Origin: Candidatus Babeliales bacterium
Lineage (GTDB): Bacteria > Babelota > Babeliae > Babelales > JANWKD01
Direction of reading: 5' to 3'
NCBI GenBank assembly: GCA_963722075.1
Contig: CAVRJM010000001.1
Coordinates: 149,898 to 213,897, forward strand
DNA: 64,000 nt
Made by a program: the position numbers and the translations under genes. Below are positions 127-61,522 of the stretch, piece after piece. The stretch's first letter is position 1. Every line of letters starts with the position of its first letter. Under the pieces are notes generated by a model, which had not been told where the DNA came from, searched no databases, and was given only the letters and a program-made list of their open reading frames with translations.

Positions 127-157
127 CCTGGATTGCTTCGACGAGCTCGCAACGACG
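127..157. repeat. GC-rich dispersed repeat, module A (CTGGATTGCTTCG..CTCGCAACGAC)
   Basis: The sequence cctggattgcttcgacgagctcgcaacgacg stands out in AT-rich intergenic DNA. The same module recurs at 18130, 22842 (reverse complement), 23002, ~33152 and 60162. Confidence 0.75.
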
Positions 158-301
158 TACGTTTATAATTTTATATTATTTGAGCAAGATATTATGCATC
201 TTAGTGGGAATTTAAAACTTCAAATAAGTGTAAAACTCAACAGAATCTAGCGAGTTTGGCATCTAAAACAGCCTATTTACAAAAAAAGGTCCTTTATTAA
301 T

Positions 302-328
302 GGGATCCTCACGCTGCGCTCGGACGAT
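302..328. repeat. GC-rich dispersed repeat (GGATCC-CACGCTNCGCTCGG type)
   Basis: gggatcctcacgctgcgctcggacgat closely matches 1885-1915 (ctggatccccacgctagcgctcgggatgacg). Confidence 0.6.
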
Positions 329-342
329 AAAAAGAGGGATCA

Positions 343-1695
343 TTACTTAGTCTTTGCATCCTGCACATCATACCCAAGTTGTTTTAACTTCTCACGCAAT
401 TCATCTGATTTTTTATAATCCTTAGCAATGCGTGCTGCTTCACGCTCCTCAATCAATTGTTGAATTTCAGCAGTAATAGTAACTGCTTTTTCAGGTAAGG
501 GATGTAAAGTAAGGCCTAAAATATCAATAATGAATTTTTTTACCAAGCATGCTTCATCAGGTGAAAGTTTTTTAAGATGTTCAAAAACTACGCCAAACAT
601 GCCGGGTGTATTTAAATCATCAACTAAAAACTCCATCATTTTTTTTATAATTTCCGATTCTTTTACTTGAGAAGGCAGTATATTTTCAGGAATTTGTACT
701 TTACTAAAGAACAGTGCCAATTTTTGATATGTTTTGTGTGCCGTTTGTAAATCATCTAAAGAAAAATCCAGCGGCGATCGATAATGATGTGTCAGAATCA
801 TGTATCGTAATACCATCGGATCAAATTGTTCAAAAATTTGGCGAATGGTAAAGAAATTATGCAGAGATTTAGACATTTTTTCTTCATTTATGCGCACAAA
901 TGCATTATGCATCCAGTATCGTGCAAATGGTTTACCCCAGACGCTTTCTGATTGCGCAATTTCATTTTCATGATGTGGGAAAATAAGATCCATGCCGCCG
1001 CCATGAATATCAATATGTTCGCCTAAAAAATGGCGGGCAAGCGCCGAACATTCTATATGCCAACCCGGGCGTCCATATCCCCAAGGGCTTTTCCAAAAAG
1101 TTCCTTCTGGTTCTGCTTTCCATAAAGCAAAATCAAGAGGATCTCTTTTTTTATGGTTTTGTTCAACACGAGCACCAATGCGCAAATCTTCAAGCTTTTG
1201 TTTAGATAATTGCCCATAATCAGAAAAGGTTGGGATGCTAAAATAAACATCACCATCTACCACATACGCTTTGCCGGTATCAACGAGTTTTTTAATAAGG
1301 GTAATAATCTCAGGGATGTGCTCTGTTACACGGGGTTGAAAGGTTGGTGCCAAGCAATTGAGCGCTACCATGTCTTCCTGATAGGCAGTAATAAATTGAT
1401 TGGCAACGAGTAAAAATTTGCTTGGATCGCCATATTCTTGTACTGCTTTATTAATTAATTTGTCATCAATATCAGTAAAATTGCGACAATAAATAACGGT
1501 ATAATCCAAAAATGTTAATAATCGATATAACAGATCAAATACAATATACACGCGGGCATGGCCAACGTGAGAATAATCATAAGGAGTTACGCCACAAACA
1601 TACATGGTAACCTTGTGAGGATACCAGGGTTTAAATGATTCTTTTTTAGCGCTTAAGGTATTGTTAATAACTAGCATATATTCCAACTCGTGCAT
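343..1695 (-). CDS. cysS: cysteine--tRNA ligase
   Basis: Class I aaRS signatures are present: HIGH-type motif (YSHVGHARVY) and a literal KMSKS. The overall layout is CysS-like (PWGYGRPGWHIECSA, LIFPHHENEIAQ). An alternative start at 1677 (MLVINNTLS..) fits typical CysS N-termini better. Confidence 0.95.
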   Translation of the reverse strand: MHELEYMLVINNTLSAKKESFKPWYPHKVTMYVCGVTPYDYSHVGHARVYIVFDLLYRLLTFLDYTVIYCRNFTDIDDKLINKAVQEYGDPSKFLLVANQFITAYQEDMVALNCLAPTFQPRVTEHIPEIITLIKKLVDTGKAYVVDGDVYFSIPTFSDYGQLSKQKLEDLRIGARVEQNHKKRDPLDFALWKAEPEGTFWKSPWGYGRPGWHIECSALARHFLGEHIDIHGGGMDLIFPHHENEIAQSESVWGKPFARYWMHNAFVRINEEKMSKSLHNFFTIRQIFEQFDPMVLRYMILTHHYRSPLDFSLDDLQTAHKTYQKLALFFSKVQIPENILPSQVKESEIIKKMMEFLVDDLNTPGMFGVVFEHLKKLSPDEACLVKKFIIDILGLTLHPLPEKAVTITAEIQQLIEEREAARIAKDYKKSDELREKLKQLGYDVQDAKTK

Positions 1696-1811
1696 TTTAA
1701 GGGTTTTTTATAGTTTAAAAAAGATTATCCACTCTGGTCAATCTTAAAAAAAAAGGTATTCTAATTTATTATTAAAAATTACAGAATTATATTAAATAAA
1801 TTTTTCGATAT

Positions 1812-1852
1812 GTCATTCTGAGATCTTGCTTTGCAAGATCGTGAGAATCCAG
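1812..1852. repeat. palindromic GTCAT..ATCCAG hairpin element
   Basis: gtcattctgaGATCTTGCtttGCAAGATCgtgagaatccag has a perfect 8-bp inner hairpin plus outer arms ATTCT/AGAAT. It belongs to the family at 39546, 39592, 47441, 47501, 50485 and 61490 (reverse complement). Confidence 0.8.
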
Positions 1853-1884
1853 TTATAAAATATAAAGACTTTTTTATTTATTTA

Positions 1885-1915
1885 CTGGATCCCCACGCTA
1901 GCGCTCGGGATGACG
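1885..1915. repeat. palindromic GTCAT..ATCCAG element, reverse orientation
   Basis: The reverse complement reads cgtcatcccgagcgctagcgtggggatccag, with arms ATCCC/GGGAT. Confidence 0.7.
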
Positions 1916-1950
1916 TCTGGGTTGGTTCTGGTAGCTTAGGAGCGTATAAT

Positions 1951-4662: not shown

Positions 4663-4986
4663 ATGAAAAACAATAAAATATCTTATTTATTATTATTGTT
4701 AGTTTGTCAAAGCATGCGCGCAATGGAAAATCCAAATCCTGAAAAGGAAGTAAAAAGCGAATATAACCTGCAAGGGCTTGATTTTGCTGATGAAATAATA
4801 TTATCAGCTGCAATACAGAAACTTGAATATTTGAAAAATAATAAGAATAGTATAATCCAAAACTATATAAATAAAGCTGGAATAACCCTGAAAGAGGCAA
4901 CGAATCTATATGACAATAATTTAACAGAAGCTCAGGGCTATTTGGATGAGGTAGTAACGGCGATCAAGAAAGGATTGGGTTACTAA
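4663..4986 (+). CDS. small secreted protein, array paralog P1
   Basis: SD ggagag lies upstream. Signal peptide MKNNKISYLLLLLVCQSMRA|MENP. Core IIQNYINKAGITLKEATNLYDNNL matches the array motif. Confidence 0.7.
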   Translation: MKNNKISYLLLLLVCQSMRAMENPNPEKEVKSEYNLQGLDFADEIILSAAIQKLEYLKNNKNSIIQNYINKAGITLKEATNLYDNNLTEAQGYLDEVVTAIKKGLGY

Positions 4987-4993
4987 CGTAGAA

Positions 4994-5040
4994 GATGCTG
5001 AACAGCATTTAGAAATATAATATCTTGAATGGAGCAAAAA
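4994..5040 (+). promoter_or_regulatory. conserved leader upstream of array paralog (candidate promoter + SD)
   Basis: ..cagcatttagaaatataatatcttgaatggagcaaaaa is near-identical to the leaders at 5664-5723 and 7536-7586. It contains a TATAAT-like box and a GGAG 8-9 nt before ATGGACGG. Confidence 0.35.
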
Positions 5041-5595
5041 ATGGACGGTTATAACAACTATAAAAAATATTTTATTACGATCATAGGTTTATTACTTGCC
5101 ATTTCTTCACTGAATGCGATGCTTTATGATGCGCCTAATAATAATGATAAACGTATCAAAGAAATAGAAGATCATCTGGCCTTCATTAATAATCATATTG
5201 ATGAGTTTATTAAAAGTACTATGAAGCAATTTAATATATCAGAAGAAGACGCTATAGAGTATTATCATCAGCTTGTTGATGGCTACGAAGATGAGATTCA
5301 AAAATTACATGAAAAAGATACGCATCTTGAATATTTCCTGGTATACAATGAGGATCCAGAAAATATTCGTGGCCAATTGAGGGGAATAAATGACGAAATT
5401 ACATATTATGAAAAAGAAAAAAACGATATAATCCAAAATTTTAGTATTGGATATCAGATATCTAAATCAGAGGCACTTGAGCAATATGAAAGGAACTTGT
5501 CCAATTTAAAAGATGAAAGAGACGGGTTATTACTTTTATTGGGACAATTAAAGCCGGAATTAACGGTAGAAGAATACATTAAAAAAATTGAATAA
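5041..5595 (+). CDS. small secreted protein, array paralog P2 (two-module fusion)
   Basis: The start ATGGACGG is conserved with 5724, 7116 and 7587; the ATG at 5029 lies within the conserved SD region. Signal peptide ..IIGLLLAISSLNA|MLYD. The N-half matches P3 and the C-half matches P6. Confidence 0.8.
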   Translation: MDGYNNYKKYFITIIGLLLAISSLNAMLYDAPNNNDKRIKEIEDHLAFINNHIDEFIKSTMKQFNISEEDAIEYYHQLVDGYEDEIQKLHEKDTHLEYFLVYNEDPENIRGQLRGINDEITYYEKEKNDIIQNFSIGYQISKSEALEQYERNLSNLKDERDGLLLLLGQLKPELTVEEYIKKIE

Positions 5596-5663
5596 ACCTT
5601 TTGTATCAAAGAAGAAAAGGGAATAAAATGATGAAAAAGGGTGTGGGAGAACATTAAGGTAGA

Positions 5664-5723
5664 AAATGCTGAAAAATTTCAAGACAGCATTTAGAAATAT
5701 AAGATCTTAAATGGGGTAAAAAA
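5664..5723 (+). promoter_or_regulatory. conserved leader upstream of array paralog
   Basis: aaatttcaagacagcatttagaaatataagatcttaaatggggtaaaaaa is duplicated at 7536-7586. Confidence 0.35.
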
Positions 5724-6011
5724 ATGGACGGTAAAAATAAATTTAAAATGTATCTTTTTATAAGTATGCTTTTGCTTACCCTATCTTCATTGTACGCAAT
5801 GAACTATTACGATCAGCGTATCAAAGAATTAACTGACCATGCGCAATTTATCAAAGACCATGCTGAATATTTTATTAAAAGTCATATGAAACAATTTGAT
5901 GTAGCAGAAGAAGAAGCACGACGCTTTTATAATGAATTGATGGGTAACTTTGAGCGAAAAATTCAAAAGTTATTTCGGAAAAGAGATGAAGTTAAGAATG
6001 TTAAACGATAG
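5724..6011 (+). CDS. small secreted protein, array paralog P3
   Basis: MDGKNKFKMYLFISMLLLTLSSLYA|MNYY; core FIKSHMKQFDVAEEEARRFYNEL. Confidence 0.8.
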   Translation: MDGKNKFKMYLFISMLLLTLSSLYAMNYYDQRIKELTDHAQFIKDHAEYFIKSHMKQFDVAEEEARRFYNELMGNFERKIQKLFRKRDEVKNVKR

Positions 6012-6025
6012 AGAAAGGAGTGATC

Positions 6026-6376
6026 ATGCAAGTACATAAACTATTTTATTTATTAATTTTAATTTTAGGGATTAATTCTGGTATTAAATCGATGGAAAAC
6101 CCATATCCAGAGGGTAGCAGAGAGTTTAGCCGAATGTATGTTCAACAAATACCAGCCAAATATTTAGAAGAAGCATTAAAAAAAGCACAGCAAGACTTTA
6201 TAGTATTTAGAGATGGTAAAGAATCTTTCATTCAACAGGTTATGCATGATTTTGGCTATAATAGGGAAGATGTACAATTCGCTTACGACAAGGAGTTAGA
6301 AGTAAAAGAAGCAATTGTAGATAGTATACAAGAGGCTATCAGAAATATACAAAACATCACCGAAGGTGCAGAATAA
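6026..6376 (+). CDS. small secreted protein, array paralog P4
   Basis: SD aaaggag lies 5 nt before the ATG at 6026; the ORF-track start at 6020 is a GTG inside the SD. MQVHKLFYLLILILGINSGIKS|MENP; core FIQQVMHDFGYNREDVQFAYDKEL. Confidence 0.7.
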   Translation: MQVHKLFYLLILILGINSGIKSMENPYPEGSREFSRMYVQQIPAKYLEEALKKAQQDFIVFRDGKESFIQQVMHDFGYNREDVQFAYDKELEVKEAIVDSIQEAIRNIQNITEGAE

Positions 6377-6417
6377 ACGAGATGAAGAAGGACTGTCTAA
6401 TAAAAAAAGGAGTATTT

Positions 6418-6480
6418 ATGAAGATAAATAAACTATTTTATTTATTTAAGCATGACCTGAAAACCCCATCGGCTTTCTAA
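6418..6480 (+). pseudogene. 5' stump of an array paralog truncated by IS200-like insertion
   Basis: SD aggag precedes ATG, then MKINKLFYLF.., the same N-terminus type as 6026 and 7882 (..KLFYL..). The reading frame then runs into the IS left-end hairpin and stops after 20 codons. Confidence 0.55.
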
Positions 6481-7006
6481 GCCTGGGGATGAAAGGTCAT
6501 CCGTATAAGGCGCGGAGGGAGCGGCTGAGTTGCGAAGTGGAGCGCCGTCGAAAAATGTGGCATACTATGAGGTATGTATTGGACAGGAGCACATACAAAG
6601 CATAGGCACATGTACCACATAGTTTGGACACCTAAATATTGGAAGAGGGTATTGCAGGGCAAAATAGCAAAACGAATAGAAGAGCTATTGAAGGAATGCT
6701 CAGAAGTAAACAATTGGGAAATACATGAATTGAATGTGCAGCCGGATCATGTGCATCTAATGGTTCAACTAAAGCCACACATAAGTGTCAGTAAAGCAGT
6801 ACAATTGTTCAAAGGTGGAAGCAGTAAAGTGATTAGAGAAGAATTTCCTGAATTAGAAGAATATTTATGGGGGGATAGCTTCTGGGGAGATGGGTTTTTT
6901 TCTGAAACTGTTGGCCAAGTAAATGTTGATGTCATTCGCGAATATATAAAAAATCAATAGTCCTTAGAATGCGAAGCCACGGCTTTTAAGCCGTGCGAGC
7001 TTCACT
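6449..7006 (+). mobile_element. IS200/IS605-family element (tnpA only)
   Basis: A Y1 HUH transposase gene is flanked by subterminal imperfect hairpins with a shared GGCTT..AAGCC core. Left hairpin: 6454-6498 (CCCCAtcGGCTTtctAAGCCTGGGG). Right hairpin: 6973-7003 (GAAGCcACGGCTTttAAGCCGTgcgaGCTTC). No tnpB is present. The exact ends are not determinable here. Confidence 0.75.
6574..6960 (+). CDS. tnpA: IS200-like Y1 (HUH) transposase
   Basis: YHIVWTPKYWKRVL, HUH motif PDHVHLMV, and a C-terminal helix with the catalytic-type Tyr (VIREYIKNQ). The 128-aa size is typical of the family. Confidence 0.9.
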   Translation: MYWTGAHTKHRHMYHIVWTPKYWKRVLQGKIAKRIEELLKECSEVNNWEIHELNVQPDHVHLMVQLKPHISVSKAVQLFKGGSSKVIREEFPELEEYLWGDSFWGDGFFSETVGQVNVDVIREYIKNQ

Positions 7007-7115
7007 TAAGCTATATATTTTTGGTAAAATAGATGTATGGTGATGGAGTAATAACAGGGAAAATATAGTTAAAACAACTGAATCACTAGAATTATAATTT
7101 ATAAGTGGAGCAAAA

Positions 7116-7487
7116 ATGGACGGTTTTATTAAATATAAAAAATCTTTTATTGCAATTATAGGTTTGTTACTTATTTCTTCATTAAATGGAATGGAGCCTG
7201 ATAAACCTTCTAAATCTGAGGAACCTAGTGCCTATTATCTAGAAGATCCAGAATATGTTCGTGAGGAATTGAAAGCATTAAATAATGATATTAAATATTA
7301 TGAAGAAAACAAAGAAGAGATAGTTCAAAATATTAGTATTGGATATCAGATATCCATGTCAGAGGCGCTAAATCAATACGAACGGCACTTATCTAATTTA
7401 AAAGAGGAAAGGGAGGAGTTGCTGCGGTTATTAGCTCCAGAAAATCCAGAATTATCATTTGAAGAATATGTTAAAAAAATTGAATAA
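7116..7487 (+). CDS. small secreted protein, array paralog P6
   Basis: MDGFIKYKKSFIAIIGLLLISSLNG|MEPD. The C-terminal region is strongly similar to the C-half of P2 (..IVQNISIGYQISMSEALNQYERHLSNLKEERE..EEYVKKIE). Confidence 0.85.
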   Translation: MDGFIKYKKSFIAIIGLLLISSLNGMEPDKPSKSEEPSAYYLEDPEYVREELKALNNDIKYYEENKEEIVQNISIGYQISMSEALNQYERHLSNLKEEREELLRLLAPENPELSFEEYVKKIE

Positions 7488-7535
7488 CAACAAATAATAA
7501 AATGCGTAATTATATATAGGTGCGGTAGTTCTTTT

Positions 7536-7586
7536 AAATTTCAAGTCAGCATTTTAGAAATATAAGATCTTAAATGGAGTAGAAAA
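7536..7586 (+). promoter_or_regulatory. conserved leader upstream of array paralog (here a pseudogene)
   Basis: aaatttcaagtcagcattttagaaatataagatcttaaatggagtagaaaa; compare 5664-5723. Confidence 0.35.
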
Positions 7587-7871
7587 ATGGACGGTAAAAA
7601 TAAATTTAAAATGTATCTTTTTATAAGCATGTTTTTGCTTACTCTATCTTCATTGCACGCAATGAGCTATTTTGATCAACGCATTTAAGAAATAAAAGAT
7701 CATGCTCAATTTATTAGGGATCATGTAGATGAATTTATTAAAAGCCATGTAAGGCAATTTGGGGTAGATGAAGAAGAAGCACGGCGCTTTTATAATGAAT
7801 TGATGGGTAACTTTGAAAAGAAAATTCAGAAATTGCTTAGAAAAAAAGATGAAGAAAATAAGGGTGCCTAA
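7587..7871 (+). pseudogene. nonsense-mutated copy of paralog P3
   Basis: The region is collinear with 5724-6011 at nucleotide level. Codon 34 is TAA (7686-7688, ..cgcatttaagaa..) where P3 has AAA (..cgtatcaaagaa..). The frame stays open and P3-like afterwards (..FIKSHVRQFGVDEEEARRFYNELMGNFEKKIQKL..) up to the TAA at 7869. Confidence 0.85.
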
Positions 7872-7881
7872 GGGGGAAAAA

Positions 7882-8214
7882 ATGAGCTTTAATAAGTTAT
7901 TTTATTTATTTGTATTAATAATGATAATGGGACGTGATGTTTTTGCTATGGAATATACCGGCTTTTATGTTGAGAGTCCAAGCACTACTCAAATTAAATC
8001 TGTAAACGAACAAATTAAAAGTTTGGAAAAAATGATTCAAGGCATAGAAAAAAATAGGGAAAGATTTGTAAACCGTCGGGTAAGGGAAGGGATGACTAAA
8101 GAAGCAGCAGAAATTGATTTTCAGGATTGGCTTGAAAAAAAGAAAGCGCAATTGTATACGCTAAAAAATCCTGATACAGAAGAAAGCTACGTATCGGAAA
8201 TATGGCAAGAATAA
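7882..8214 (+). CDS. small secreted protein, array paralog P8
   Basis: SD aggggg lies upstream of the ATG at 7882. MSFNKLFYLFVLIMIMGRDVFA|MEYT; core FVNRRVREGMTKEAAEIDFQDWL. The ORF-track start at 7813 lies inside the upstream pseudogene. Confidence 0.7.
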   Translation: MSFNKLFYLFVLIMIMGRDVFAMEYTGFYVESPSTTQIKSVNEQIKSLEKMIQGIEKNRERFVNRRVREGMTKEAAEIDFQDWLEKKKAQLYTLKNPDTEESYVSEIWQE

Positions 8215-8239
8215 ATTAAAATGAATTGGAGGAGAAAAC

Positions 8240-8559
8240 ATGAAGATGTTTAAGCTAATTTTTATAGCACTATTATATTGATAAGTAACACTAATCTTAT
8301 TAATGCAATGAAGCGTCCATATCGAAGTGATACCTGGGAAGCTCCAGCTTCATCATTTGTGTTTCAACAAATATATACAGATTGGGATAGAAAAGTTAAA
8401 AATATGGAAGATAATAGAGATCAAGAAATACAGCAATTGACTATTGATAATCCAACTTGGACTTTAGAAGACGTAGAAAATGAATATAATAGAATTTTAG
8501 AAAATGCAAAAGCAAACCGTGAGAATGCAAAGAATCAATTTTTATCCGAGATTTCTTAA
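8240..8559 (+). pseudogene. array paralog P9 with frameshift in its signal-peptide region
   Basis: SD ggaggag plus ATG at 8240 give MKMFKLIFIALLY* . The rest of the gene (8278-8559, ..NLINA|MKRPY.., core IQQLTIDNPTWTLEDVENEYNRIL) is in another frame. One extra T in the T5 run at 8259-8263 would restore MKMFKLIFYSTIILISNTNLINAMKRPY. Confidence 0.6.
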
Positions 8560-8700
8560 TTTTTTACTATTGTATTGCCAAATGAAATTCCAATAAGATT
8601 AGATGGGTAATAAAATATCTCTTGAGCTATTTATGTAAGTATAAATTCTATTATAATAAGGTAATAATAATTATTATATTGTTTTCAATAGGAAATATTT

Positions 8701-44441: not shown

Positions 44442-44463
44442 ATCGCCTATCTTTATGGGGCAA

Positions 44464-47531: not shown

Positions 47532-47535
47532 ATTA

Positions 47536-50008: not shown

Positions 50009-50082
50009 TAGAGGTTTTGATATCCTTATTTGATAACAGTGGATTAACAATCCTTAATTATGTCAAAAAGGGGTAAAATTGT

Positions 50083-50782: not shown

Positions 50783-50827
50783 GTTTGCTGCTTGTAGGAT
50801 AACAAAAATGAAAATAAAAGTATAAAA

Positions 50828-51205
50828 CTATGCAGCTTCTTTAGCCGATTCTTCAATACGTTCTTGGCATTTAAGACAGCGGGTTGCATTAGGGTATAAT
50901 TTCAAGCGTTTTTCTGAAATTGGTTGATTACAATCAACACAAATACCATATGACCCTTCAGCGATCATTTCTAATGCTTTAAGAATGCGATTATACTCGT
51001 CCAGTTCAGCGTCTTGCAGAGAAATTTTAAGTGTTTCCATAGAAGAAGACGATGCTTGATCACCAATATCCTGTACTTCACCGGGGTTATCCGTTTTATA
51101 CAGTTCGCCCAGTTCTTGATCCAGTTCTTTTTTACGTGTTAATAATTTAGCTTTTATTGCAGATAAGTTTATGCCTTCTCTAATTATTTTTTTTTCCTCG
51201 CTCAC
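50828..51205 (-). CDS. dksA: DksA/TraR-family C4 zinc-finger regulator
   Basis: Coiled-coil N-terminal part and CVDCNQPISEKRLKLYPNATRCLKCQ. Confidence 0.85.
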   Translation of the reverse strand: MSEEKKIIREGINLSAIKAKLLTRKKELDQELGELYKTDNPGEVQDIGDQASSSSMETLKISLQDAELDEYNRILKALEMIAEGSYGICVDCNQPISEKRLKLYPNATRCLKCQERIEESAKEAA

Positions 51206-51655
51206 TCGAGATCCTTCTTTCTTTGAAAAATTTTTTTAATAAGGTTGCTGATTCCTGAAGGCAGATTCCTGAAATAATTTCTAAAGTATTTCTTCTATAT
51301 ACCTGAAGAGGGCCTTGGTTGTCAAGTTTGTAACCAAATAAAGGAGAAGAAGCACCAAAAACTACCCCACGTAATCTGCTTAGTAATATTAAATTCATAC
51401 ACATGGCGCATGGTTCCAAGGTAACATAGAGCCAGCATCCCTCAAGGCGCCAATCTTTTTGGAAGGCGCATGCTTTAGTAATTGCTCGTATTTCTGCATG
51501 GGCTACTTGCTGTTTTTTTTCTCTACCTGATTATAGCCGCGACCAATAATAGTGCCGGTAGAATTCACTACTAGTGCTCCAATAGGAACCTCATTTTGCT
51601 TATAGGCGCGCCGTGCTTGGGCAAGGGCCTGTTTCATATATAATTCATGATTCAT
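51180..51655 (-). pseudogene. tadA: tRNA-specific adenosine deaminase TadA, interrupted by a frameshift in an A8 tract
   Basis: The N-part (51503-51655) reads MNHELYMKQALAQARRAYKQNEVPIGALVV..GYNQVEKK. After the A8 run (T8 on + at 51513-51520), the frame with QQVAHAEIRAI..LYVTLEPCAMC.. (HAE and PCxxC zinc motifs) continues to 51180. One extra A (A9) would make a single ~158-aa ORF. Confidence 0.85.
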
Positions 51656-53438
51656 CGGTACCCTGCAGAAATCTAATAAGATCTTCAGAGGCATGAGGGG
51701 TAATATAATCTGATGCAGTTCTTCCTTGGTGATCTTTCATCGTTTTATCAGCGCCATTATTAACGAGTAATATTACTGCATTAGTATTATTACGACCTAC
51801 TACTATCATAAGCGGGGTAATGCCTTGATTATCTGGTGAATTAATAAGTTTTGTAAGTTGGTGAGGGTAGGTCGTGTGTAGTAGCAATTTTAAGCAATCA
51901 AAATTGTGTTTCGCGGCAAAATGGATAGCATTGCGTCCCTTATTATCAGTTAAAAATATATCGGCTTTAAAGTCGTGAATTAATGTTGATGCCACTGGAA
52001 ATAGATTATGCTTAATGGCCTGATGTAAGGGTGTACGCCCTTTATTGTTTTTCTTATCAAGAAATGAACGATGTTGATCAACAAGCTTTTCTAGTAATTG
52101 AGGGCAATAAATTGCAAAGTGTATAATTGCATCACCTCTATTAGTGACATGAGTGGTATCGGAATTGGGTAATAATTTTAAAGATAACTCGCTATCATTA
52201 TCACGAAGTGCGTTCATGAGCGCGGTTTCACCAGTATCATCACATTGGTTGATGATATTTGGATAGCGGCATAATGTATCAATTGTGGTAGGATCTTTAT
52301 GGCAGGTTGCGTACCATAAAACGGACCTTTTTTGAGAATCAAGGATGGCTGGATTAGCGCGTTTAGCAAGTAATCTATTAAAAGTTTCTGGAGAGATACC
52401 AGATTTAACGCATAATTGTAATAAGGTACATTTTCGATTCTCACAAAAAAAATATATATCATACGCATCATTTATATGGGCCCACCAACTATCATCAACT
52501 AAATGTATGTTGTTAGTTATAACAGCTAATAATAAAAATAACTTATTTTTTTGAGCAATGGTCAATTTCGGTGTGTCTGTTAGTAACTTATCATATGCTC
52601 CGTCTTCAACTTGTTCAACCAGTTCTTCATATGCTCCAATTCTAACGTGCCCCTGCGGAGCATGATAGTTTGTTGGTAATTCGGTGACTCTATCTTTAAA
52701 TTGGATTTCCGCCTGCGCAACCATATAGTCCGTTGCTAATTCTGGAGCATGATTAAGTATTAGTTCTAATAAATGAGTATTACGATTAGTAGCATTTACT
52801 TTTTGCCATAAATATTTCTTGGTAATAATGTTAATTAATAAGCTTGCAAGTTTTTTACAATCATATATAAGCGCATTATGTAACGGGGTCATACCGTTCT
52901 TATCTGGTGTTACTATATCTAAATATCCTGCATTGCGCGGTAATTTCTTGCGATCACAAAGTAGTAATAGTTCCGTTGCTACCTTAGGATCTCCATTACA
53001 AATAAGCGCATTAAGGGGCGTTTGCCCAGCTGTATTAGTAGCTTCTAAATTACAGCGATAATTTTTTAATCTATTATGTAATGATGCTATGGTTCTTGAT
53101 CGGTGAATAAAAAAATCCGGCTTACATTCGCCTGATTCTAAAAATGTAGCAAAGTCAACATGAGCTTTTAAGAGGCTCTCATAATCTTCATTTTGAAGTA
53201 ATGGTTCAATTTCTTTATGGGTTAACTTTTTATTTTCCAGTGCATGTAATATGCCATCTATGGCTAAGGTAATTAAGGAAGGTAGCTGGTAGGTATCGTG
53301 TAAGGGTTCTACCGGTTCTAATATAGTAGGGTCAATATCCATTATAGTAGGATTAACATTCATTGTAGTATGTTCCATATCCATGGCGGCTATAATGCTC
53401 GTGCAAAAAAGTGAGAATAAAAGAATATTTTTTTTCAT
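51645..53438 (-). CDS. ankyrin-repeat protein, secreted
   Basis: MKKNILLFSLFCTSIIAA|MDME, then many ANK units (GQTPLNALICNG, GMTPLHNALIYD, GETALMNALRDN, GRTPLHQAIKHN, GRNAIHFAAKHN, GITPLMIVVGRNN..LLVNNGADK). Confidence 0.88.
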   Translation of the reverse strand: MKKNILLFSLFCTSIIAAMDMEHTTMNVNPTIMDIDPTILEPVEPLHDTYQLPSLITLAIDGILHALENKKLTHKEIEPLLQNEDYESLLKAHVDFATFLESGECKPDFFIHRSRTIASLHNRLKNYRCNLEATNTAGQTPLNALICNGDPKVATELLLLCDRKKLPRNAGYLDIVTPDKNGMTPLHNALIYDCKKLASLLINIITKKYLWQKVNATNRNTHLLELILNHAPELATDYMVAQAEIQFKDRVTELPTNYHAPQGHVRIGAYEELVEQVEDGAYDKLLTDTPKLTIAQKNKLFLLLAVITNNIHLVDDSWWAHINDAYDIYFFCENRKCTLLQLCVKSGISPETFNRLLAKRANPAILDSQKRSVLWYATCHKDPTTIDTLCRYPNIINQCDDTGETALMNALRDNDSELSLKLLPNSDTTHVTNRGDAIIHFAIYCPQLLEKLVDQHRSFLDKKNNKGRTPLHQAIKHNLFPVASTLIHDFKADIFLTDNKGRNAIHFAAKHNFDCLKLLLHTTYPHQLTKLINSPDNQGITPLMIVVGRNNTNAVILLVNNGADKTMKDHQGRTASDYITPHASEDLIRFLQGTDES

Positions 53439-53589
53439 AAAAGGCCTTTTTATAATACATGATTAACAACAGCATAGTATCACATATTATTTCAATTAGC
53501 AAATAATGCAAAAAGGTGGTTTTTACCAAGGCGTTATAGGAAAATACCTATTTTTAGGGTATACTAACTATGGTATGCTCAGTGCATAA

Positions 53590-56061
<2,472 letters not shown>

Positions 56062-56066
56062 CTTTT

Positions 56067-56275
56067 TGTCATCCCGATCCAACCTTCGCCTGAGAGATTT
56101 GGGCGGACATGGCTTGTGAATCAATCCATTAATAAAAATCCCCTGTCATCCCGATCCGCCGCCGCCAAAGGCTAAGGTGGGATAAAAGCGCTTGTCCCGT
56201 CGAAGTTGTTTACTCCGCCATAGCTTTTTTAGCTACGGCTGGATTAACGTAGACGGATGGGGATCCATTAATTAA
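56067..56275. repeat. cluster of GC-rich mosaic repeats
   Basis: gtcatcccgatccaaccttcgcc.., ..caatccattaataaaaatcc, and the 16131-type element (56147-56270), which carries an internal insertion (ttgtttactccgccatagcttttttagctacggctgg). Confidence 0.88.
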
Positions 56276-56343
56276 TAAAGGCCATAGTTATGGTCATTCT
56301 AAACAGAAGTAACCTAACAACCTACTAAAAAGAAGTTTAATAG

Positions 56344-57084
56344 ATGAAATATTTATTTATTAAAAAAATAATAAGCACCGTTATGATATCCATTTTTAGT
56401 GGGCTTTTATATAGTATGGATAGGCCAGATGATCTAGAGGGTGGATCTATTCAAGTAGATTTGGCCAATATTTCTTTATTTAGTCATATTTATAATGCAG
56501 ATGAGGTCAGTGTACTTGATCGTGAAAGTTTAAAGGAAGATCTAGAGCAAAAAAAGCTGAAAACCGTTTCCATTCTTCTTGAAATGTGTTACAGATGTCG
56601 CGTTGATCTTTGTGACGGTGATTTATTCCAGAACAGCTTTTTTTTCCCACAATGGGCATGGGAAGAAGAATATCCGGAAGGCTTAATAAAAATACATGCC
56701 ATTTGGCAGTTGCTACGAAGTGATTATGAAATACAACGCGATATCGGAAAAATTACATTTTTAAATCTTATCGAAAGTCTTAATTCTACTTCACAAGAAA
56801 TAATATTGAAACAATTAAATTCTTACAAAATGTCCAAAGAAAGACTTTTTATTAATGTGTGTCTAACGCTAATGCCTTTTTCTGTAATAGGATTAATTGG
56901 CTATTACGAAAATGAAAACGATTTGTGGAAAAACAAATCTTTTAAATTAGTGATAGGGCTTGGGGGTGTTGCTGCTCTTTTATATGGCTCGATAAAAGTT
57001 GGCTGCTCAACTCAAGATTATAGGTGGTGGCAATCAGCCAAGCGGTTTCAGAAGGCAGTAGCTATCTGTGAACAATCTTCTTAG
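56344..57084 (+). CDS. secreted/membrane protein, paralog of 59025..59714
   Basis: N-terminus ..ISIFSGLLYS|MDRP; a shared block FLNLIESLN..IILKQLNSY; two C-terminal TM helices; YRWWQS; Cys-containing tail AVAICEQS. Confidence 0.65.
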   Translation: MKYLFIKKIISTVMISIFSGLLYSMDRPDDLEGGSIQVDLANISLFSHIYNADEVSVLDRESLKEDLEQKKLKTVSILLEMCYRCRVDLCDGDLFQNSFFFPQWAWEEEYPEGLIKIHAIWQLLRSDYEIQRDIGKITFLNLIESLNSTSQEIILKQLNSYKMSKERLFINVCLTLMPFSVIGLIGYYENENDLWKNKSFKLVIGLGGVAALLYGSIKVGCSTQDYRWWQSAKRFQKAVAICEQSS

Positions 57085-57204
57085 TTTCTTGAAAAAAGCA
57101 CTTCTTGTAAATATTTTCAAATAGAAATATACAACATTCTATTGGTTGTAAATTCATAAAGTTTATGTATACTAAATAATACAAATATTAATAATGGAGT
57201 AATA

Positions 57205-58467
57205 ATGCATTATAAAAAGCTTTTTTTATTATTCTTGTTGATTGGTATACCGTTAACAAGTAATGCTAGGCTTAAGACAGCATTGTTAAATTCGATCTTA
57301 ACGAATAAATTTCATCGGCGGCTTGAGGATGTTGGCTTTGGGGGGACATGGGCTTTATTAGCAATGGGTGGTTTTCATGCAGCTGAAACAATGTGGTGGG
57401 ATAAGAAACCACTTAGTAAACACAATCTTATACTACCGATTGCAGGAATTGTTACTATGATAGGAACGATGGGTTTATCTACTTATTTACAAATTAAATC
57501 AAGAAGTTGGAATCCCTTTCAAGAAGAGCTTAATGCCGCAACTAATAATTATGAGAATAAGAAAAAGGATCTTATCAAAAAACTATATGAAGTAGAGCTA
57601 AATAAAGAAAAAGAAATAGTTGAGCGGTTGAATGAGTTAGAAACTGATTTAGATAAAAAAATAATAGAAGCACTAGATAATAACCATAATTATAAATCAT
57701 TTTTCCTTTCCAGGAGCATGGGAACAGACCGATACCAAAACATACAAGAATTATTATTTAGTCGTAATCCACGGCCAAATATTCTTATTCATCTTTGTAG
57801 GTATGGATTTAAACTCACCACTCACGAATTTCAAACAATACTGAATGAATGGCCCTTAACTGATGCTAACTATCTATTTAAAAAAATGAGTAAGTTAAAA
57901 AAAAATGGTCTTTACACACAAAATAAATGCAAAATTGTCGGATTGTCTGACTATTCTGATTGGTTGGAGCTCTGGGCAGATTATGCAAATAATTCAAATA
58001 ACCTATATCGTAATATAAAACTTTTTGAACGGTTAAATAAGTATGGTACTTGTATGGATTTAACAGAAGTAGTTATTTATTGTGTTAGAAAAAACTATTT
58101 TAATGTTATTGATTGTTTAAAAAAACAATTTGGTATTGATTTGAATAAAGGAAATAAATATGGGGAAACGCCACTTGAAACTGCTACTTTAGCTAATAAT
58201 ATAGTGATGGTTAAATACCTAATAGAGCAAGGTGCATCTGTGGTGAATGCGAAAACTAAAGGGTTATTATGGTTTGCTAAGAGATTTCCCGACCGCTTAA
58301 TTTATGATTATCTAAAAAGCAAATTGAGAGACCAACTAGTTGATAATTTTAAAATTATATTGGGCAATGGTTATACCAATAGATATGAATACAGAACTGG
58401 CTCTATTCCTACAGAATTGCCTGATGAACTTATACAACATATTGCCGACTATGCAGTAAAAAAATAA
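57205..58467 (+). CDS. membrane-anchored coiled-coil protein with at least one ankyrin repeat
   Basis: An N-terminal signal/TM plus two TM helices, a K/E-rich coiled coil (KKKDLIKKLYEVELNKEKEIVERLNELE), and an ANK unit GETPLETATLANNIVMVKYLIEQGASV. Confidence 0.65.
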   Translation: MHYKKLFLLFLLIGIPLTSNARLKTALLNSILTNKFHRRLEDVGFGGTWALLAMGGFHAAETMWWDKKPLSKHNLILPIAGIVTMIGTMGLSTYLQIKSRSWNPFQEELNAATNNYENKKKDLIKKLYEVELNKEKEIVERLNELETDLDKKIIEALDNNHNYKSFFLSRSMGTDRYQNIQELLFSRNPRPNILIHLCRYGFKLTTHEFQTILNEWPLTDANYLFKKMSKLKKNGLYTQNKCKIVGLSDYSDWLELWADYANNSNNLYRNIKLFERLNKYGTCMDLTEVVIYCVRKNYFNVIDCLKKQFGIDLNKGNKYGETPLETATLANNIVMVKYLIEQGASVVNAKTKGLLWFAKRFPDRLIYDYLKSKLRDQLVDNFKIILGNGYTNRYEYRTGSIPTELPDELIQHIADYAVKK

Positions 58468-58498
58468 ATTGATGAATACTTAAAATGAGGAAATCAAA

Positions 58499-59005
58499 AT
58501 GGAATTATATAAAAAATTGATATTGCTTATGGGTATTATAGTGGTAATGCCTTGTGTATTTGCAATGGAGCATGAAGATGACCCAGAATTAGCGGAAGCA
58601 ATGAAGCGGTCATTACTTGGGCAAAATCAATACCTGCCAAGTGCGCCCCCAATGCATGGAGTTCAAAATAGTGAAATAGCAGATCGAAATTTAGCAATAG
58701 AACTTACCTACTCATGGAATAATTCTGAAGGCAATGGAAAAGAAAGAACGGGTAATGATGATTCTCAAAATTATGCAGGTTCTTCACGTTCACGTGGTAC
58801 AAATAGACCGGTTGATTCCACTAATTTTAATTTTGCTGCCCGTCATGCTGCACTTACCGAGTTTAAAAACAAACCATGTAATAATTGTTTTTATAGGCAA
58901 AATCTACCTTGGTACAAAAAATATTTTCTTCCACTTATTAGTAGTGCAGCACTTTTTGGTGCGGGTAGTTTATTTACCTACGCATTGATGAAGTGGACTC
59001 GATAA
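58499..59005 (+). CDS. secreted low-complexity protein with C-terminal TM anchor
   Basis: MELYKKLILLMGIIVVMPCVFA|MEHE; a polar Ser/Asn/Gly-rich middle region; C-terminal TM YFLPLISSAALFGAGSLFTYALMKW. Confidence 0.6.
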   Translation: MELYKKLILLMGIIVVMPCVFAMEHEDDPELAEAMKRSLLGQNQYLPSAPPMHGVQNSEIADRNLAIELTYSWNNSEGNGKERTGNDDSQNYAGSSRSRGTNRPVDSTNFNFAARHAALTEFKNKPCNNCFYRQNLPWYKKYFLPLISSAALFGAGSLFTYALMKWTR

Positions 59006-59024
59006 TGATTCTCCTTCAGTAATA

Positions 59025-59714
59025 ATGGTTTTTATGAAGAAGTATATTTCTTATCTACTTTTTGCTTTTTCTATTTTAAGTTTATTTATGAGTACTGCTT
59101 CATTACTGCATGCTATGGATAGTGATTCAGAATGGTGGCAAGAAAATGAAAAGCAACAAGCAATTATCACGCTGGTAAGTACCATAGCAAAAATGGGATA
59201 TATTTATCAAAAATTAGATATTCAAAATATCGAATTTCCCGTTTACATACCGGAGGTTACCGGAAGATATGATTTATGGTGTAATAATTATGATTCTCCT
59301 AATCCTTTTGAGAATTCTCATTGGGATAAATACTGTCCTGGTGGGTATGATCAATGTTCTGCTGCAGTAGATCAATTAAAGAAACGTTTACCAGAAAATA
59401 CATTACTTTCTCTTATTGCAAAACTAACGCCATTAAATAAAAAAATACTCTTGAAGGATTTGCAACAATATAATCCAAACCCTTCTTTATATTGGCGTAT
59501 TGCAGGTACAAGTGCATCGGCAGTGTTGTCGGTAGGTAGTGCGGCTCTTACGTATACATTTCCTGATTTAAAATATGCTGGTATTGCTGGCATGGTGCTG
59601 GGTGGAATTGGTACTTTAGTAGGAGCATGTTTTGTAAAAACTAGTTTTAGTGAGCGGCAATGGTGGCGGCGATGTCCTAATTGCCATGAAGCAATTAGAC
59701 TTTGCAAAGAATAG
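59025..59714 (+). CDS. secreted/membrane protein, paralog of 56344..57084
   Basis: ..FSILSLFMSTASLLHA|MDSD; LLSLIAKLT..ILLKDLQQY; two TM helices; RQWWRR; Cys tail CPNCHEAIRLCKE. Confidence 0.65.
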   Translation: MVFMKKYISYLLFAFSILSLFMSTASLLHAMDSDSEWWQENEKQQAIITLVSTIAKMGYIYQKLDIQNIEFPVYIPEVTGRYDLWCNNYDSPNPFENSHWDKYCPGGYDQCSAAVDQLKKRLPENTLLSLIAKLTPLNKKILLKDLQQYNPNPSLYWRIAGTSASAVLSVGSAALTYTFPDLKYAGIAGMVLGGIGTLVGACFVKTSFSERQWWRRCPNCHEAIRLCKE

Positions 59715-59823
59715 TAAAAACAATCTCAATGGTTTCAAAACTTCGATGGTATTCTTGACGTAAGTAAAACCTTTTATAAAACAACCCAGTCTATTAAGAA
59801 AAAAATGACAGCTATGGTAATAC

Positions 59824-59948
59824 CGTCATTCCGCTATGCCATTGCCAGGATTATGGCAGAATAAAAGCGCTTGTTTCGTCTAAGCTTTAGCGAAGACGGA
59901 TAGGGAATTGAATTGCATCAGCCGTAGCTGGCAAAGCGAAGGCTGGAA
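59824..59948. repeat. cluster of GC-rich mosaic repeats
   Basis: ..ataaaagcgcttgtttcgtctaagctttagcgaagacggatagg (compare 56183) and tcagccgtagctggcaaagcgaaggctgg, a hairpin module with a CAGCC/GGCTG stem. Confidence 0.8.
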
Positions 59949-59991
59949 ACAATGGATAAAATTAAATGACCTTAAAGCAAAACCCGTTGAA

Positions 59992-60035
59992 GGGTCTGCA
60001 GCACATCGTTAGATGTGCGAGGGCCCGCCTTTTTT
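59992..60035 (+). terminator. intrinsic-terminator-like stem-loop followed by T6
   Basis: GGGTCtgca-GCACATCgttaGATGTGC-gag-GGCCC gcc TTTTTT. Two further perfect hairpins follow at 60051-60075 and 60087-60112. Confidence 0.5.
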
Positions 60036-60161
60036 GCGATCAAAGAGAGATACATAAGAGATTCTTCTCTTATGTGCCCTTGTATTGAAAATATTGGGCA
60101 AGCAATATTTTCATACCCGGCCGGTATTAGGCCAATTGAGAAATTGGATTAAAATTTTATT

Positions 60162-60432
60162 GCTGGATTGCTTCGACAAGCTCGCAACGACAATGGCGAT
60201 TTTATTACCCAATTGCTTTGACAAGCCATGTCCGCCGAAGTTATTCGAGCGAAGGATCGATCGCAACGACAAGAGGTTCTATTTCTTAATGGATTCCCAT
60301 CGTCTCTGCTAAAGCTTCGACGTGACAAGCGCATCCCGCCATAGCTGTTTACTCCGCCATAGCTTTCTTTACTTAGTATTAAAGCTTTTAGAAAGCGACG
60401 GCTGGATTGGCGGCGGCGAATCAGGATGACAA
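60162..60432. repeat. cluster of GC-rich mosaic repeats
   Basis: Module A (gctggattgcttcgacaagctcgcaacgac), module B (catgtccgccgaagttattcgagcgaaggatcgatcgcaacgac), ttaatggattccc.., and a reversed GCGCTTGTC module (cttcgacgtgacaagcgcatcccgcc). These are followed by ccgccatagc x2 and ..gcgacggctggattggcggcgg. Confidence 0.88.
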
Positions 60433-60581
60433 AGGTGATTTTGTTGCTTTTTATACCTTTGTTATCTTTCTCAATTTAAAAATAAGTCTTAATAAAATAG
60501 TTGGCAAGATAAAAAATTGCATTAGCCCAATGAGCCATGGTAAAATAATTCTCAAAAATCTTTTTACCATTGCATTAGCTC

Positions 60582-61493
60582 ATGAATGAAAAAAATATAA
60601 ACGCTCCTGCTCAATTATTAATTGTAACCGGCTATTCTGGTGCGGGCAAAAGTACTGTTTTGCGTGCCTTAGAAGATATCGGTTTTTTTTGTGTTGATAA
60701 TTTACCCATTCCGTTACTCACCTCATTTTTTCAACTCATTGCTCAGTCAACCATGATGGGGCAAAAAATTGCGCTCGGCATTGATATTCGTAGCGGTCAA
60801 AATATGCAAGATTTGATCACCAAATTACAAGAACCAATTGCCAATCAATATTTGGTGAAAATATTCTTTTTAACCGCTAGTTTGCAGGTGCTGGTGAAAC
60901 GCTACCAAGAAACACGGCGCAAGCATCCATTGAGCACTACCATGAGTCTTGAAGAAGCGATTAAAAACGAACAAGAATTATTATATCCACTTATGCAATT
61001 AGCTGATTTGGTATTGGATACTGATCAATTAACCATTCATCATCTGCGTAAATTTGTGCGTGGATCATTTGCTGAATCGGGGCAATCGCAATTGGTGGTG
61101 AATCTTATTTCATTTGGTTTTAAATATGGCATTCCCACCGAAAGCAATTATATTTATGATGTACGTTCGTTACCCAATCCCTATTTTGTGTCACATTTGC
61201 GTCCCTTAGATGGCACCTCTACTGAAATACGTAATTATTTATTTGCGCAGCCAGAAGTGCAAGATTATTGGCATCGCTTAAAAGAGTTTATTAATTTTTC
61301 AATTCAAAAATCGTATGATGAAGGGCGCTTTTTTACTAATATAGCAATTGGCTGTACCGGCGGGCGTCATCGTTCGGTTGCATTAGTGCATGAGCTTGCT
61401 AGCATACCGATGGAACAAGTTCATTACGTGGTAAAGCATCGTGATATTATGCAATATGCAACAGAAAACCAAATGACAGGAGGGTTTTATTAA
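60582..61493 (+). CDS. rapZ: RNase adapter / nucleotide-binding protein RapZ (YvcJ family)
   Basis: LLIVTGYSGAGKSTVLRALEDIGFFCVDNLP, ..SFGFKYG.P.., DVRSLPNPY and IGCTGGRHRSV. Confidence 0.9.
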   Translation: MNEKNINAPAQLLIVTGYSGAGKSTVLRALEDIGFFCVDNLPIPLLTSFFQLIAQSTMMGQKIALGIDIRSGQNMQDLITKLQEPIANQYLVKIFFLTASLQVLVKRYQETRRKHPLSTTMSLEEAIKNEQELLYPLMQLADLVLDTDQLTIHHLRKFVRGSFAESGQSQLVVNLISFGFKYGIPTESNYIYDVRSLPNPYFVSHLRPLDGTSTEIRNYLFAQPEVQDYWHRLKEFINFSIQKSYDEGRFFTNIAIGCTGGRHRSVALVHELASIPMEQVHYVVKHRDIMQYATENQMTGGFY

Positions 61494-61522
61494 TGGATTC
61501 CCACACTTCGTTCGGAATGACC
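61490..61522. repeat. GTCAT..ATCCATTAA hairpin element (reverse) overlapping the rapZ stop codon
   Basis: The reverse complement is gtcATTCCgaacgaagtgtgGGAATccattaa. The rapZ TAA (61491-61493) lies inside the terminal TTAATGGAT motif. Confidence 0.75.

Follow-up and report, generated by a model that had tools for sequence, protein, structure and literature searches.

CGTC-tagged palindromic repeats as the probable source of GC-rich spacer mosaics in a Dependentiae genome

What are the GC-rich palindromic repeats that recur throughout the non-coding DNA of a Candidatus Dependentiae (TM6/Babeliales) genome, and how did they come to be there? We addressed this question in a 64-kb window, meaning the whole stretch of DNA that was analysed (positions 149,898 to 213,897 of contig CAVRJM010000001.1), from a genome of ~1.42 Mb; all coordinates below are positions in the window unless a relative is named. 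With a probability of roughly three in four, we take the repeats to be small, non-autonomous and selfish members of the superfamily of CGTC-tagged repetitive extragenic palindromic (REP) sequences, together with related TGTC-tagged GC-rich hairpins, that multiplied recently in the non-coding DNA of one Dependentiae lineage. This reading is built on the anatomy of the units and the complementarity of their arms, on the comparison of orthologous spacers between close relatives, and on the match to a repeat class that has already been described.

Repeat units and their complementary arms

A preliminary description of the window had proposed a mosaic family of palindromic repeats, and the family is real: about 25 non-coding loci carry GC-rich modules, far above chance expectation. 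Every coordinate it gave for modules A, B and E1, for AAATTTTCGGGTGTACGACGC (present at 47291 and 50433) and for the GTCAT units was confirmed, as was the ~80-nt composite at 16131 (reverse complement) and 56147, to which alignment adds a third copy at 60300-60440 (reverse complement). The repeat features, with the one insertion sequence (IS) that was tested as their mobiliser, are as follows.

128-156, minus strand: module A, simple CGTC unit CGTC-GTTGC-GA-GCTCGTC-GAA-GCAAT-CCAG (pattern match and relaxed scan)
297-331, minus strand: degenerate unit that has lost its 5' arm and ends GGATCCCATTAATAAA (read from the sequence)
1811-1853, plus strand: CGTC unit with arms ATTCT/AGAAT and inner hairpin ATCTTGC/GCAAGAT
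1884-1915, minus strand: CGTC unit (arms ATCCC/GGGAT) facing the 1811 unit tail-to-tail
6441-7006, plus strand: IS200-family insertion sequence (tnpA 6574-6960), tested as candidate mobiliser
16131-16208, minus strand: ~80-nt composite long hairpin, copy 1
17947-18011, plus strand: module A interrupted directly after GTCGTTGCGA by a nested module B
18130-18159, minus strand: module A, simple unit
18800-18891, plus strand: two TGTC-tagged GC hairpins, including CCGCC…GGCGG at 18862
22841-22869, plus strand: module A, simple unit
23003-23055, minus strand: module A (ATTGC arm) containing a nested module B
27280-27306, plus strand: fragment from the 3' end of the ~80-nt composite (ACGTAGACGGATGGCCATCCATTAATAAA)
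32977-33036, minus strand: CGTC-unit 3' end (…GAGAATCCAGTTATAAA) with a TGTC-tagged hairpin fused to it
33059-33121, plus strand: B-type unit TGTC-CGCC-GAAG…CGAAG-GCGG-ATCCAGT with a 35-nt AT-rich loop
33152-33210, minus strand: 3' half of module A with nested module B, 5' arm lost
39545-39620, plus strand: two tandem CGTC units, arms ATTCC/GGAAT and ATCAC/GTGAT
40345-40405, minus strand: E1, truncated copy (alignment)
47325-47431, minus strand: E1 composite of CGTC head, inverted TGTC hairpin, B-type unit and tail (alignment)
47440-47533, plus strand: two tandem CGTC units (ATCTT/AAGAT and ATCCT/AGGAT) in a ~290-nt repeat block
49460-49542, strand not assigned: 84-nt GC-rich module between glmS and rpsI
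50152-50272, plus strand: full E1 composite GTCATCCCGA…GGATCCATTAATAAA with nested hairpins (alignment)
50355-50388, strand not assigned: 30-34-nt hairpin unit inserted in a ~190-nt conserved element
50484-50522, plus strand: CGTC unit (arms ATCTT/AAGAT) sharing 91% identity with the unit at 47441
50674-50707, plus strand: hairpin CCAGCC…GGCTGG abutting the 3' end of tRNA-Thr
56067-56136, plus strand: chimeric unit with ATCCC head, nested B and A-like 3' end, arms non-complementary
56144-56275, plus strand: ~80-nt composite, copy 2, with nested 39-nt unit D
59860-59950, plus strand: TGTC-tagged hairpin and D-type hairpin CAGCC…GGCTG
60163-60271, minus strand: simple module A (60163-60192) in tandem with a module A containing nested B (60205-60271)
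60282-60440, minus strand: ~80-nt composite, copy 3, with nested unit D
61492-61522, minus strand: CGTC unit with arms ATTCC/GGAAT, between rapZ and divIC

Read on the strand of the tag, the general unit is (C/T)GTC – AT-NNN – GA – interior – N'N'N'-AT – CCA(G/T). The head, (C/T)GTC-AT-NNN-GA, is fixed and asymmetric; the interior is variable and holds either a mini-hairpin or another whole unit; the 3' arm, N'N'N'-AT, complements the 5' arm; and the tail, CCA(G/T), is followed in this genome by T(A/T)ATAAA. The perfect stem is 5 bp long and gives way to a conserved GA facing G(A/T)(A/G) and then to the interior, which ranges from 7 to ~110 nt. Among 18 aligned units, 15 start with TGTC or CGTC (the exceptions being GTTC, TATC and GGTC) and 16 have the CCA(G/T) tail, while the first stem pair is A-T in 15 (G·T in the module A subfamily) and the second is T-A in all 18. 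Module A, when reverse-complemented, fits the same frame (CGTC-GTTGC-GA-…-GAA-GCAAT-CCAG).

Pattern counts exceeded expectation for each part of the unit. The module A pattern, CTGGATTGCTTC-N(5-35)-TCGCAAYGAC, has five exact matches (0.00 expected), with partial copies at 17948-18010 and 33152; GTCATNNNGA…ATCCAKT has six (0.02 expected); and the tail with its flank, ATCCAKTWATAAA, has 13 at no more than one mismatch (1.9 expected). Repeat finding placed module B at 17978 (reverse complement), 23015, 33174 and 60231 (families D6 and D13), and alignment gave three copies of E1. A relaxed scan recovered 16 units, all of them (16/16) in the non-coding DNA that makes up 17% of the window, and this non-coding DNA holds 38 GC-rich islands (>=60% G+C) in a window with ~35% G+C throughout. 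Neighbouring units are arranged tail-to-tail (1811/1915, 17947/18159 and 22841/23055) or in tandem (39545/39591, 47440/47500 and 60163/60205), and the two orientations are about equally frequent (11 plus, 12 minus) on DNA whose GC skew is positive and constant; divergent, tandem and convergent spacers all hold units, which may share the strand of the upstream gene or oppose it.

The arms had been described as differing between copies and yet staying complementary, and this was borne out by two analyses. When the search was anchored on GTCAT and ATCC only, leaving the three inner arm bases free, those bases were perfectly complementary in 10 of 25 anchored pairs, compared to 0.4 expected. In an alignment of the 18 units, set by head and tail and deliberately including imperfect and chimeric ones, 91.1% of cells were paired, compared to 76.3 ± 2.6% with the 3' letters shuffled, and the covariation score was 0.544 against 0.268 in the shuffles; 0 of 500 shuffles reached the observed pairing or score, so that this test, which had been set beforehand, did not refute the claim. 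Sliding the partner columns lowered pairing to 16-54%. Both sides change in three of the five stem pairs, and seven arm types coexist (ATTGC, ATTCT, ATCCC, ATTCC, ATCAC, ATCTT and ATCCT). The composite carries ATCCC/GGGAT in the window and ATTCT/AGAAT in its homologue at locus L254, which is compensatory change within one family. Selection on structure, which the preliminary description drew from the covariation, would be one reading of it; the predicted structures are weak.

Complementary arms could be kept up by selection for mobility, by one-step correction of quasi-palindromes or by the coexistence of separate palindromic lineages, and the latter two require no selection. Either template switching in quasi-palindromes or arm-to-arm gene conversion would bring the two arms into agreement in one step; alternatively, each arm type would be a palindromic lineage of its own, horizontally transferred. 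Taken jointly we regard these as a tentative, minority possibility. Unrelated phyla have units with these arm types and similar interiors, and where two copies agree in their arms they agree in their loops as well (47441 and 50485 are 91% identical), which places much of the covariation between subfamilies; against this, the compensatory arm differences between the window and L254 lie inside one homologous composite family. A no-selection origin of this kind concerns only the upkeep of complementarity and is compatible with mobility.

Filled and empty sites among relatives

Named homologues of RapZ are labelled Candidatus Dependentiae, Babeliales or Babeliaceae, which assigns the window to a small TM6/Dependentiae genome, and relative loci were ranked by RapZ identity (L123 88%, L125 79%, L246 75%, L247 64% and L248 58%). 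The gene order glmS-rpsI-tRNA-dksA-tadA-gyrB … rapZ-divIC-sodB is kept in all five relative contigs. Spacer lengths in the closest relative, L123, compare with those in the window as follows.

Between the 468-aa open reading frame (ORF) and glmS: L123 79 nt, window 371 nt
Between glmS and rpsI: L123 50 nt, window 175 nt
Between rpsI and dksA: L123 262 nt, window 777 nt
Upstream of rapZ: L123 142 nt, window 867 nt

Alignment of the spacer between the 468-aa ORF and glmS showed well-conserved flanks around the ~290-nt repeat block, which L123 lacks. Neither L123 nor L125 has the rapZ/divIC unit, a pattern that points to gain on the lineage of the window. Compared with its relatives, the RapZ of the window has a few extra residues, and the TAA codon that ends it falls within the conserved TTTTATTAAT sequence flanking the unit inserted there (61470-61493), indicating that the insertion reshaped the end of the gene. 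Repeat density differed in the same direction: the relaxed scan found 2.5 units per 10 kb in the window, a single true unit in L123 and none in 82 kb of L125, L246, L247 and L248, while the density of GC-rich non-coding islands per 10 kb was 5.9 for the window and 0.5-0.8 for the four closest relative loci. When the window's repeat segments were compared with the relative contigs by BLAST, the only matches beyond contigs of the same genome were one to an orthologous flank in L123 and one weak foreign match to module A. Short-read Logan contigs of the window's own genome (L001 and L122) stop inside repeat units, as expected of multi-copy repeats. Since the relatives keep the gene order and have short spacers without repeats (apart from the one unit in L123), the comparison indicates that the elements are recent gains, and the proposed mobility of the REP, Rickettsia palindromic element (RPE) or miniature inverted-repeat transposable element (MITE) kind is borne out: the elements are absent from the relatives' orthologous spacers, and the alternative of relics fixed at orthologous sites is disfavoured.

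Filled and empty sites, together with nested insertions, suggest that the process was recently active in a very small genome. The unit D hairpin (TGTTTAC-TCCGCC-ATAGC…GCKACG-GCTGGA-TT) sits at different internal positions and in opposite orientations in the composite copies at 56144 and 60282-60440. A ~30-nt hairpin interrupts the window copy of a ~190-nt conserved element and is missing from the L123 copy. This element (window 50270-50470, L123 7780-7930, with a fragment at window 47291-47320; ends AAATTTTCGGGTGTACGACGCGTTACCGG; no Rfam match) follows the tail of a CGTC unit in both genomes, at different positions, namely the rpsI/tRNA-Thr spacer and downstream of gyrB, and could be a small RNA gene or another mobile module. 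Rfam searches returned only the two tRNAs at the gathering threshold on the whole window and nothing beyond tRNAs at E-value thresholds on 47100-50900 and L123 7600-8100. The 84-nt module likewise lies in the glmS/rpsI spacer in the window and in the rpsI/tRNA-Thr spacer in L123 (4023-4106; 76% identical, E 2e-12). Module B, the interior of the composite and the interior of E1 all start directly after GTCATNNNGA, so that head and tail form a constant frame around a variable interior. The composites of modules A and B share identical junctions and may therefore be copies of one composite, not independent insertions.

Genes around the repeats comprise a set of housekeeping functions identified with Pfam (cysS, bamA, smpB, thyX, secF, rho, a mutS-family gene, murB, pheT, lspA, glmU, mreB, ksgA, glmS, rpsI, dksA, gyrB, rapZ and sodB), as well as several ankyrin- and Sel1-repeat proteins, two tRNAs and one IS200-type transposase; the ankyrin and Sel1 repeats would, in our view, suit an intracellular lifestyle. 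The tRNA adenosine deaminase gene tadA is a frameshifted pseudogene in the window (51206-51694, minus strand), with the fragments '…NEVPIGALVV…GRGYNQ' and 'EPCAMC…' in different frames; L123, L246, L247 and L248 have an intact copy (153-164 aa) in the corresponding position. A gene for a 597-aa ankyrin-repeat protein (51645-53438) lies between tadA and gyrB, where L123 has no gene and L125 also has an ankyrin gene; gene content varies around the conserved core. Two copies of a 156-nt direct repeat (36461-36616 and 44247-44402, 74% identity) fall in the 3' part of the ORF at 35693-36661 and in the nominal spacer 44023-44463, which suggests that this spacer holds a gene fragment or pseudogene.

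Movement of the repeats and competing explanations

On the reading we favour, CGTC-type hairpin repeats would have entered this Dependentiae lineage and then increased in number, both in the spacers and by nesting within each other. Copies would spread through a single-stranded or cruciform DNA intermediate, recognised by its shape together with the conserved tag, GA bulge and tail, and the enzyme acting on it would work in trans. Recognition by shape would explain how at least seven arm sequences coexist while each remains complementary, and the coexisting arm types would argue against recognition as sequence-specific inverted repeats. A few copies may have been put to host use, such as the hairpin with a T-run after tRNA-Thr. 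We think it unlikely, as a more specific form of events, that a very recent burst of CGTC-type elements inserted site-specifically under the guidance of structure, either into existing units directly after GTCATNNNGA or into AT-rich spacers by a TTAAT-like sequence.

A role as host cis-acting elements, in which selection on RNA structure would preserve the units as terminators, stabilisers of mRNA or sites of RNA processing, is very unlikely as an account of the family, despite covarying arms and the many copies that lie just after stop codons (for example of glmS, rapZ and gyrB). Such roles have been proposed for REPs in other bacteria (PMC3733652). The same spacers next to the same genes lack the units in five relative loci, and units also occupy divergent promoter regions and show no fixed strand with respect to the gene upstream. 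Read on the tag strand, the tail is rich in A where a terminator would be U-rich, RNA folds of neither strand beat shuffles (z-scores -1.1 to +1.5), and a promoter and terminator consensus scan of 45000-62000 found no enrichment of promoter-like sites, and terminator-like sites only seldom on units. Because the hairpins are weak, followed by A-rich sequence, dispensable in relatives and mixed in context and strand, a general terminator or stabiliser role is unlikely. Both tRNA genes (Ser and Thr) are directly followed by GC-rich hairpins (40701-40735 and 50674-50707), and the one after tRNA-Thr, which is followed by a T-run on the minus strand, is the only hairpin that fits an intrinsic terminator; it may act as one, co-opted by the host.

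Similarly improbable is that the CGTC hairpins are attachment (att)-like recombination sites, targeted by a site-specific recombinase of the IS110/Piv type or by a phage enzyme, with the nested modules as scars or cargo of repeated integration at the centre of the palindrome. An integration-scar model of this kind has been proposed for the dRS3 arrays and intergenic mosaic elements of Neisseria (NIMEs). The fixed starting point of every nested module, directly after GTCATNNNGA, would follow from it, as would chimeric units with unmatched arms (56067-56136), and the motif does occur in viral and prophage contigs; REPs of Coxiella are moreover known as targets of IS1111 (PMC5896051). Pfam scans of the 58 large ORFs (>100 aa) in the window, however, found no recombinase or integrase, and the identical junctions of the A and B composites leave them explicable as one copied composite.

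The only transposase in the window had been put forward as the likely driver of the repeats, in the manner of REP doublets forming hairpins (REPINs) and their REP-associated tyrosine transposases (RAYTs), by which a Y1 enzyme recognises hairpins as single-stranded DNA and mobilises them. The enzyme itself was confirmed: the ORF at 6574-6960 is a full-length Y1_Tnp protein (Pfam, 142 bits), of a class that acts on DNA hairpins. GTAG-tagged REPs are linked to RAYTs, and for CGTC elements movement by 'a broad spectrum of transposases' has been left open (PMC3733652). The role as driver is nevertheless unsupported, and we give it little credence. The gene belongs to a 566-bp insertion sequence (6441-7006, 86% identical to the L254 copy) with end hairpins of its own, a strong one at the left end (6452-6500) and one at the right end (6973-7003), which showed no significant similarity to any repeat (best E 0.2-1.6), and CGTC units do not flank it. 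TnpA homologues lie mostly on ~1-kb contigs, as expected for a multi-copy insertion sequence and unlike a single-copy RAYT. In L254, which comes from the sample that yielded L123 and belongs to the closest relative sampled or to one co-occurring with it, the insertion sequence (86% TnpA identity) is accompanied by only one unit in 12 kb. A tblastn search with TnpA of 120 foreign loci carrying the motif gave one distant and one marginal match, neither adjoining a unit. The balanced orientation of units on constant GC skew also differs from the replication-strand bias that IS200/IS605 family elements usually show. An association of Y1 enzymes with CGTC repeats is likewise missing from the literature (PMC3733652). 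The enzyme that moves the repeats is thus probably not the window's IS200 transposase. The insertion sequence lies within a tandem array of small paralogous ORFs (4663-9700) with signal-peptide-like N-termini and no Pfam match, which includes apparent pseudogene copies in its nominal spacers.

Chance and low complexity as the origin of the repeats are ruled out by the match counts relative to expectation and by the covariation statistics.

The CGTC-tagged class and other repeat systems

CGTC-tagged REPs (Di Nocera, De Gregorio and Rocco 2013, BMC Genomics 14:522; PMC3733652) are defined by an unpaired CGTC tag, often TGTC and in some cases CCTC, by AT as the first two stem pairs and by an unpaired CCA tail. 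They comprise many stem and loop subtypes, are mostly intergenic and have no dedicated transposase, and their hosts include alpha-proteobacteria, Rickettsia (at the ends of RPEs), Wolbachia, Coxiella, Neisseria, Bacteroidetes, Chlorobi, Spirochaetes and Thermotogae (PMC3733652). The window units have the (C/T)GTC tag, the AT pairs and the CCA tail, many stem and loop subtypes within one genome, a mostly intergenic location, an intracellular host and no linked transposase. Peptides given in the supplement of that study for intragenic Rickettsia conorii units (SFPRKRES, VIPAKAGI and WIPWSNHGMT; PMC3733652) are, when back-translated by us, consistent with GTCAT…ATCCAG units. The repeats are thus members of an already described, bacteria-wide class and not an invention of this lineage, although Dependentiae are absent from the published list of hosts, and the window units are distinguished by heavy nesting into one another, giving composites of 80-130 nt, and by the conserved T(A/T)ATAAA flank after the tail.

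Several points weigh against the assignment to this class and against recent multiplication. Canonical CGTC REPs have 8-9-bp stems and 4-5-nt loops and mostly form head-to-head dimers (PMC3733652), whereas the window units combine a 5-bp outer stem, a GA/GNN internal loop and a variable inner hairpin and are paired tail-to-tail or in tandem. For modules B, C and D, the 84-nt module and the ~190-nt element the match to the CGTC definition is only loose, and they may represent families of their own. Single units fold no better than shuffled sequence, as DNA or as RNA and on either strand, and as the z-scores are mostly not significant, stability is unusable as evidence. The stability contributed by G·A pairs and by GNA mini-loops, GCGAAGC being one, may be underestimated in nearest-neighbour models. 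Mobility is read from the comparison of loci, in which presence and absence could partly reflect deletions in the relatives, though five loci agree, and the repeat census covers one 64-kb window of the ~1.42-Mb genome.

Beyond the window, a scan of one genome per species for the exact module A pattern gave at least 120 matching stretches, spread over many phyla, compared to ~2 that we estimate by chance. Among the matches listed are many Bradyrhizobium, sphingomonads and other alpha-proteobacteria including Rickettsiales, as well as Legionellales, Coxiellaceae, Berkiellales, Lysobacterales and Bacteroidales; matches in Melainabacteria, Spirochaetaceae, Opitutaceae, Parcubacteria and Bacillota each come from a single metagenome-assembled genome, and these rarer phyla need caution as their labels may be binning errors. 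The middle of the module, which was not part of the search, is also conserved in foreign matches (…TTCGCTNCGCTCGC… or …TTCGTCGCTTCGCTCCTCGC…), and beyond the searched positions the consensus (…TTCGCTNCGCTCGCAATGAC) dominates Bradyrhizobium and sphingomonads among the matches listed. Some foreign copies hold longer inner hairpins in the same outer frame, many are inverted pairs ~50 nt apart, and other arm types of the window occur in foreign genomes too (GTCATCCTGAG and GTCATTCTGAG, for example as GTCATCCTGAG…GAAGGATC and GTCATTCTGAGG…GAAGAATC). The motif was also found in at least 120 IMG/VR contigs, in prophage records of Helicobacter canis, and on alpha-proteobacterial megaplasmids, a plasmid of Legionella lytica from an Acanthamoeba isolate and a cyanobacterial plasmid. 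Viral or prophage contigs and plasmids are possible vehicles for spread between phyla, and the occurrence of the motif on them, including replicons of Legionella and other amoeba-associated bacteria, may reflect exchange in shared amoebal hosts. When metagenomes were scanned for the AACGAC form of module A that is specific to the window, no donor or relative was identified; the five contigs returned (41-66% GC) lack similarity to the window beyond the unit, such that the variant seems to arise sporadically.

If the favoured reading holds, a comparison of gene content between the full ~1.42-Mb genome and its nearly repeat-free relatives could reveal the enzyme that moves CGTC REPs and Rickettsia RPEs, which makes this lineage a tractable case and a practical route to the mobilising function. 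The repeats also matter for data handling, as they break short-read assemblies of such genomes and the inflated spacers could pass for regulatory RNA in annotation. Literature searches for palindromic repeats in Dependentiae gave no relevant report, those by sequence strings gave only unrelated primer matches, and on the movement of CGTC repeats the searchable open literature held no later paper and nothing newer than the 2013 statement that a dedicated transposase is lacking.

RPEs, which have been catalogued since about 2000, resemble the window elements as GC-richer palindromic repeats in the AT-rich genome of an obligate intracellular bacterium, with CGTC-tagged ends and no known transposase, and a locus of a Rickettsia endosymbiont (L074) has the module A frame with a longer interior. 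They are 100-150 bp long and known for in-frame insertion into protein genes, whereas 0 of the 16 window units recovered by the relaxed scan are intragenic; the likeness was drawn from their description. The repeats also share with REPIN/RAYT systems that they are small hairpins, often paired and thought to move as single-stranded DNA, and differ from them in having a CGTC or TGTC tag instead of GTAG and no RAYT flanked by repeats, the window's Y1 enzyme being an ordinary IS200. Like QMITE2 and other MITEs of Coxiella burnetii, which have relatives in Bradyrhizobium and Rhodopseudomonas, they are non-autonomous and palindromic and reside in an intracellular host. QMITE2 is 150-190 bp long, has direct repeats, contains a GTAG REP and keeps its position between strains, while the window elements differ between close relatives; direct repeats were not visible at the rapZ/divIC unit or the nested insertions, where the flanks are too diverged for exact boundaries, and the 5-bp arms can be read as short terminal inverted repeats.

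The resulting mosaic appears comparable to the NIMEs and dRS3 repeats of Neisseria or the bacterial interspersed mosaic elements (BIMEs) of Escherichia coli, in which palindromic units and other modules fill the longer spacers in varying order and orientation; here the modules sit in the loops of other units and not side by side, and no phage or recombinase was seen in association with the window repeats. The repeat class and its presence in intracellular bacteria were already known, and what the window adds is Dependentiae as a host phylum, clear filled and empty sites between close relatives, and nesting at a fixed position.

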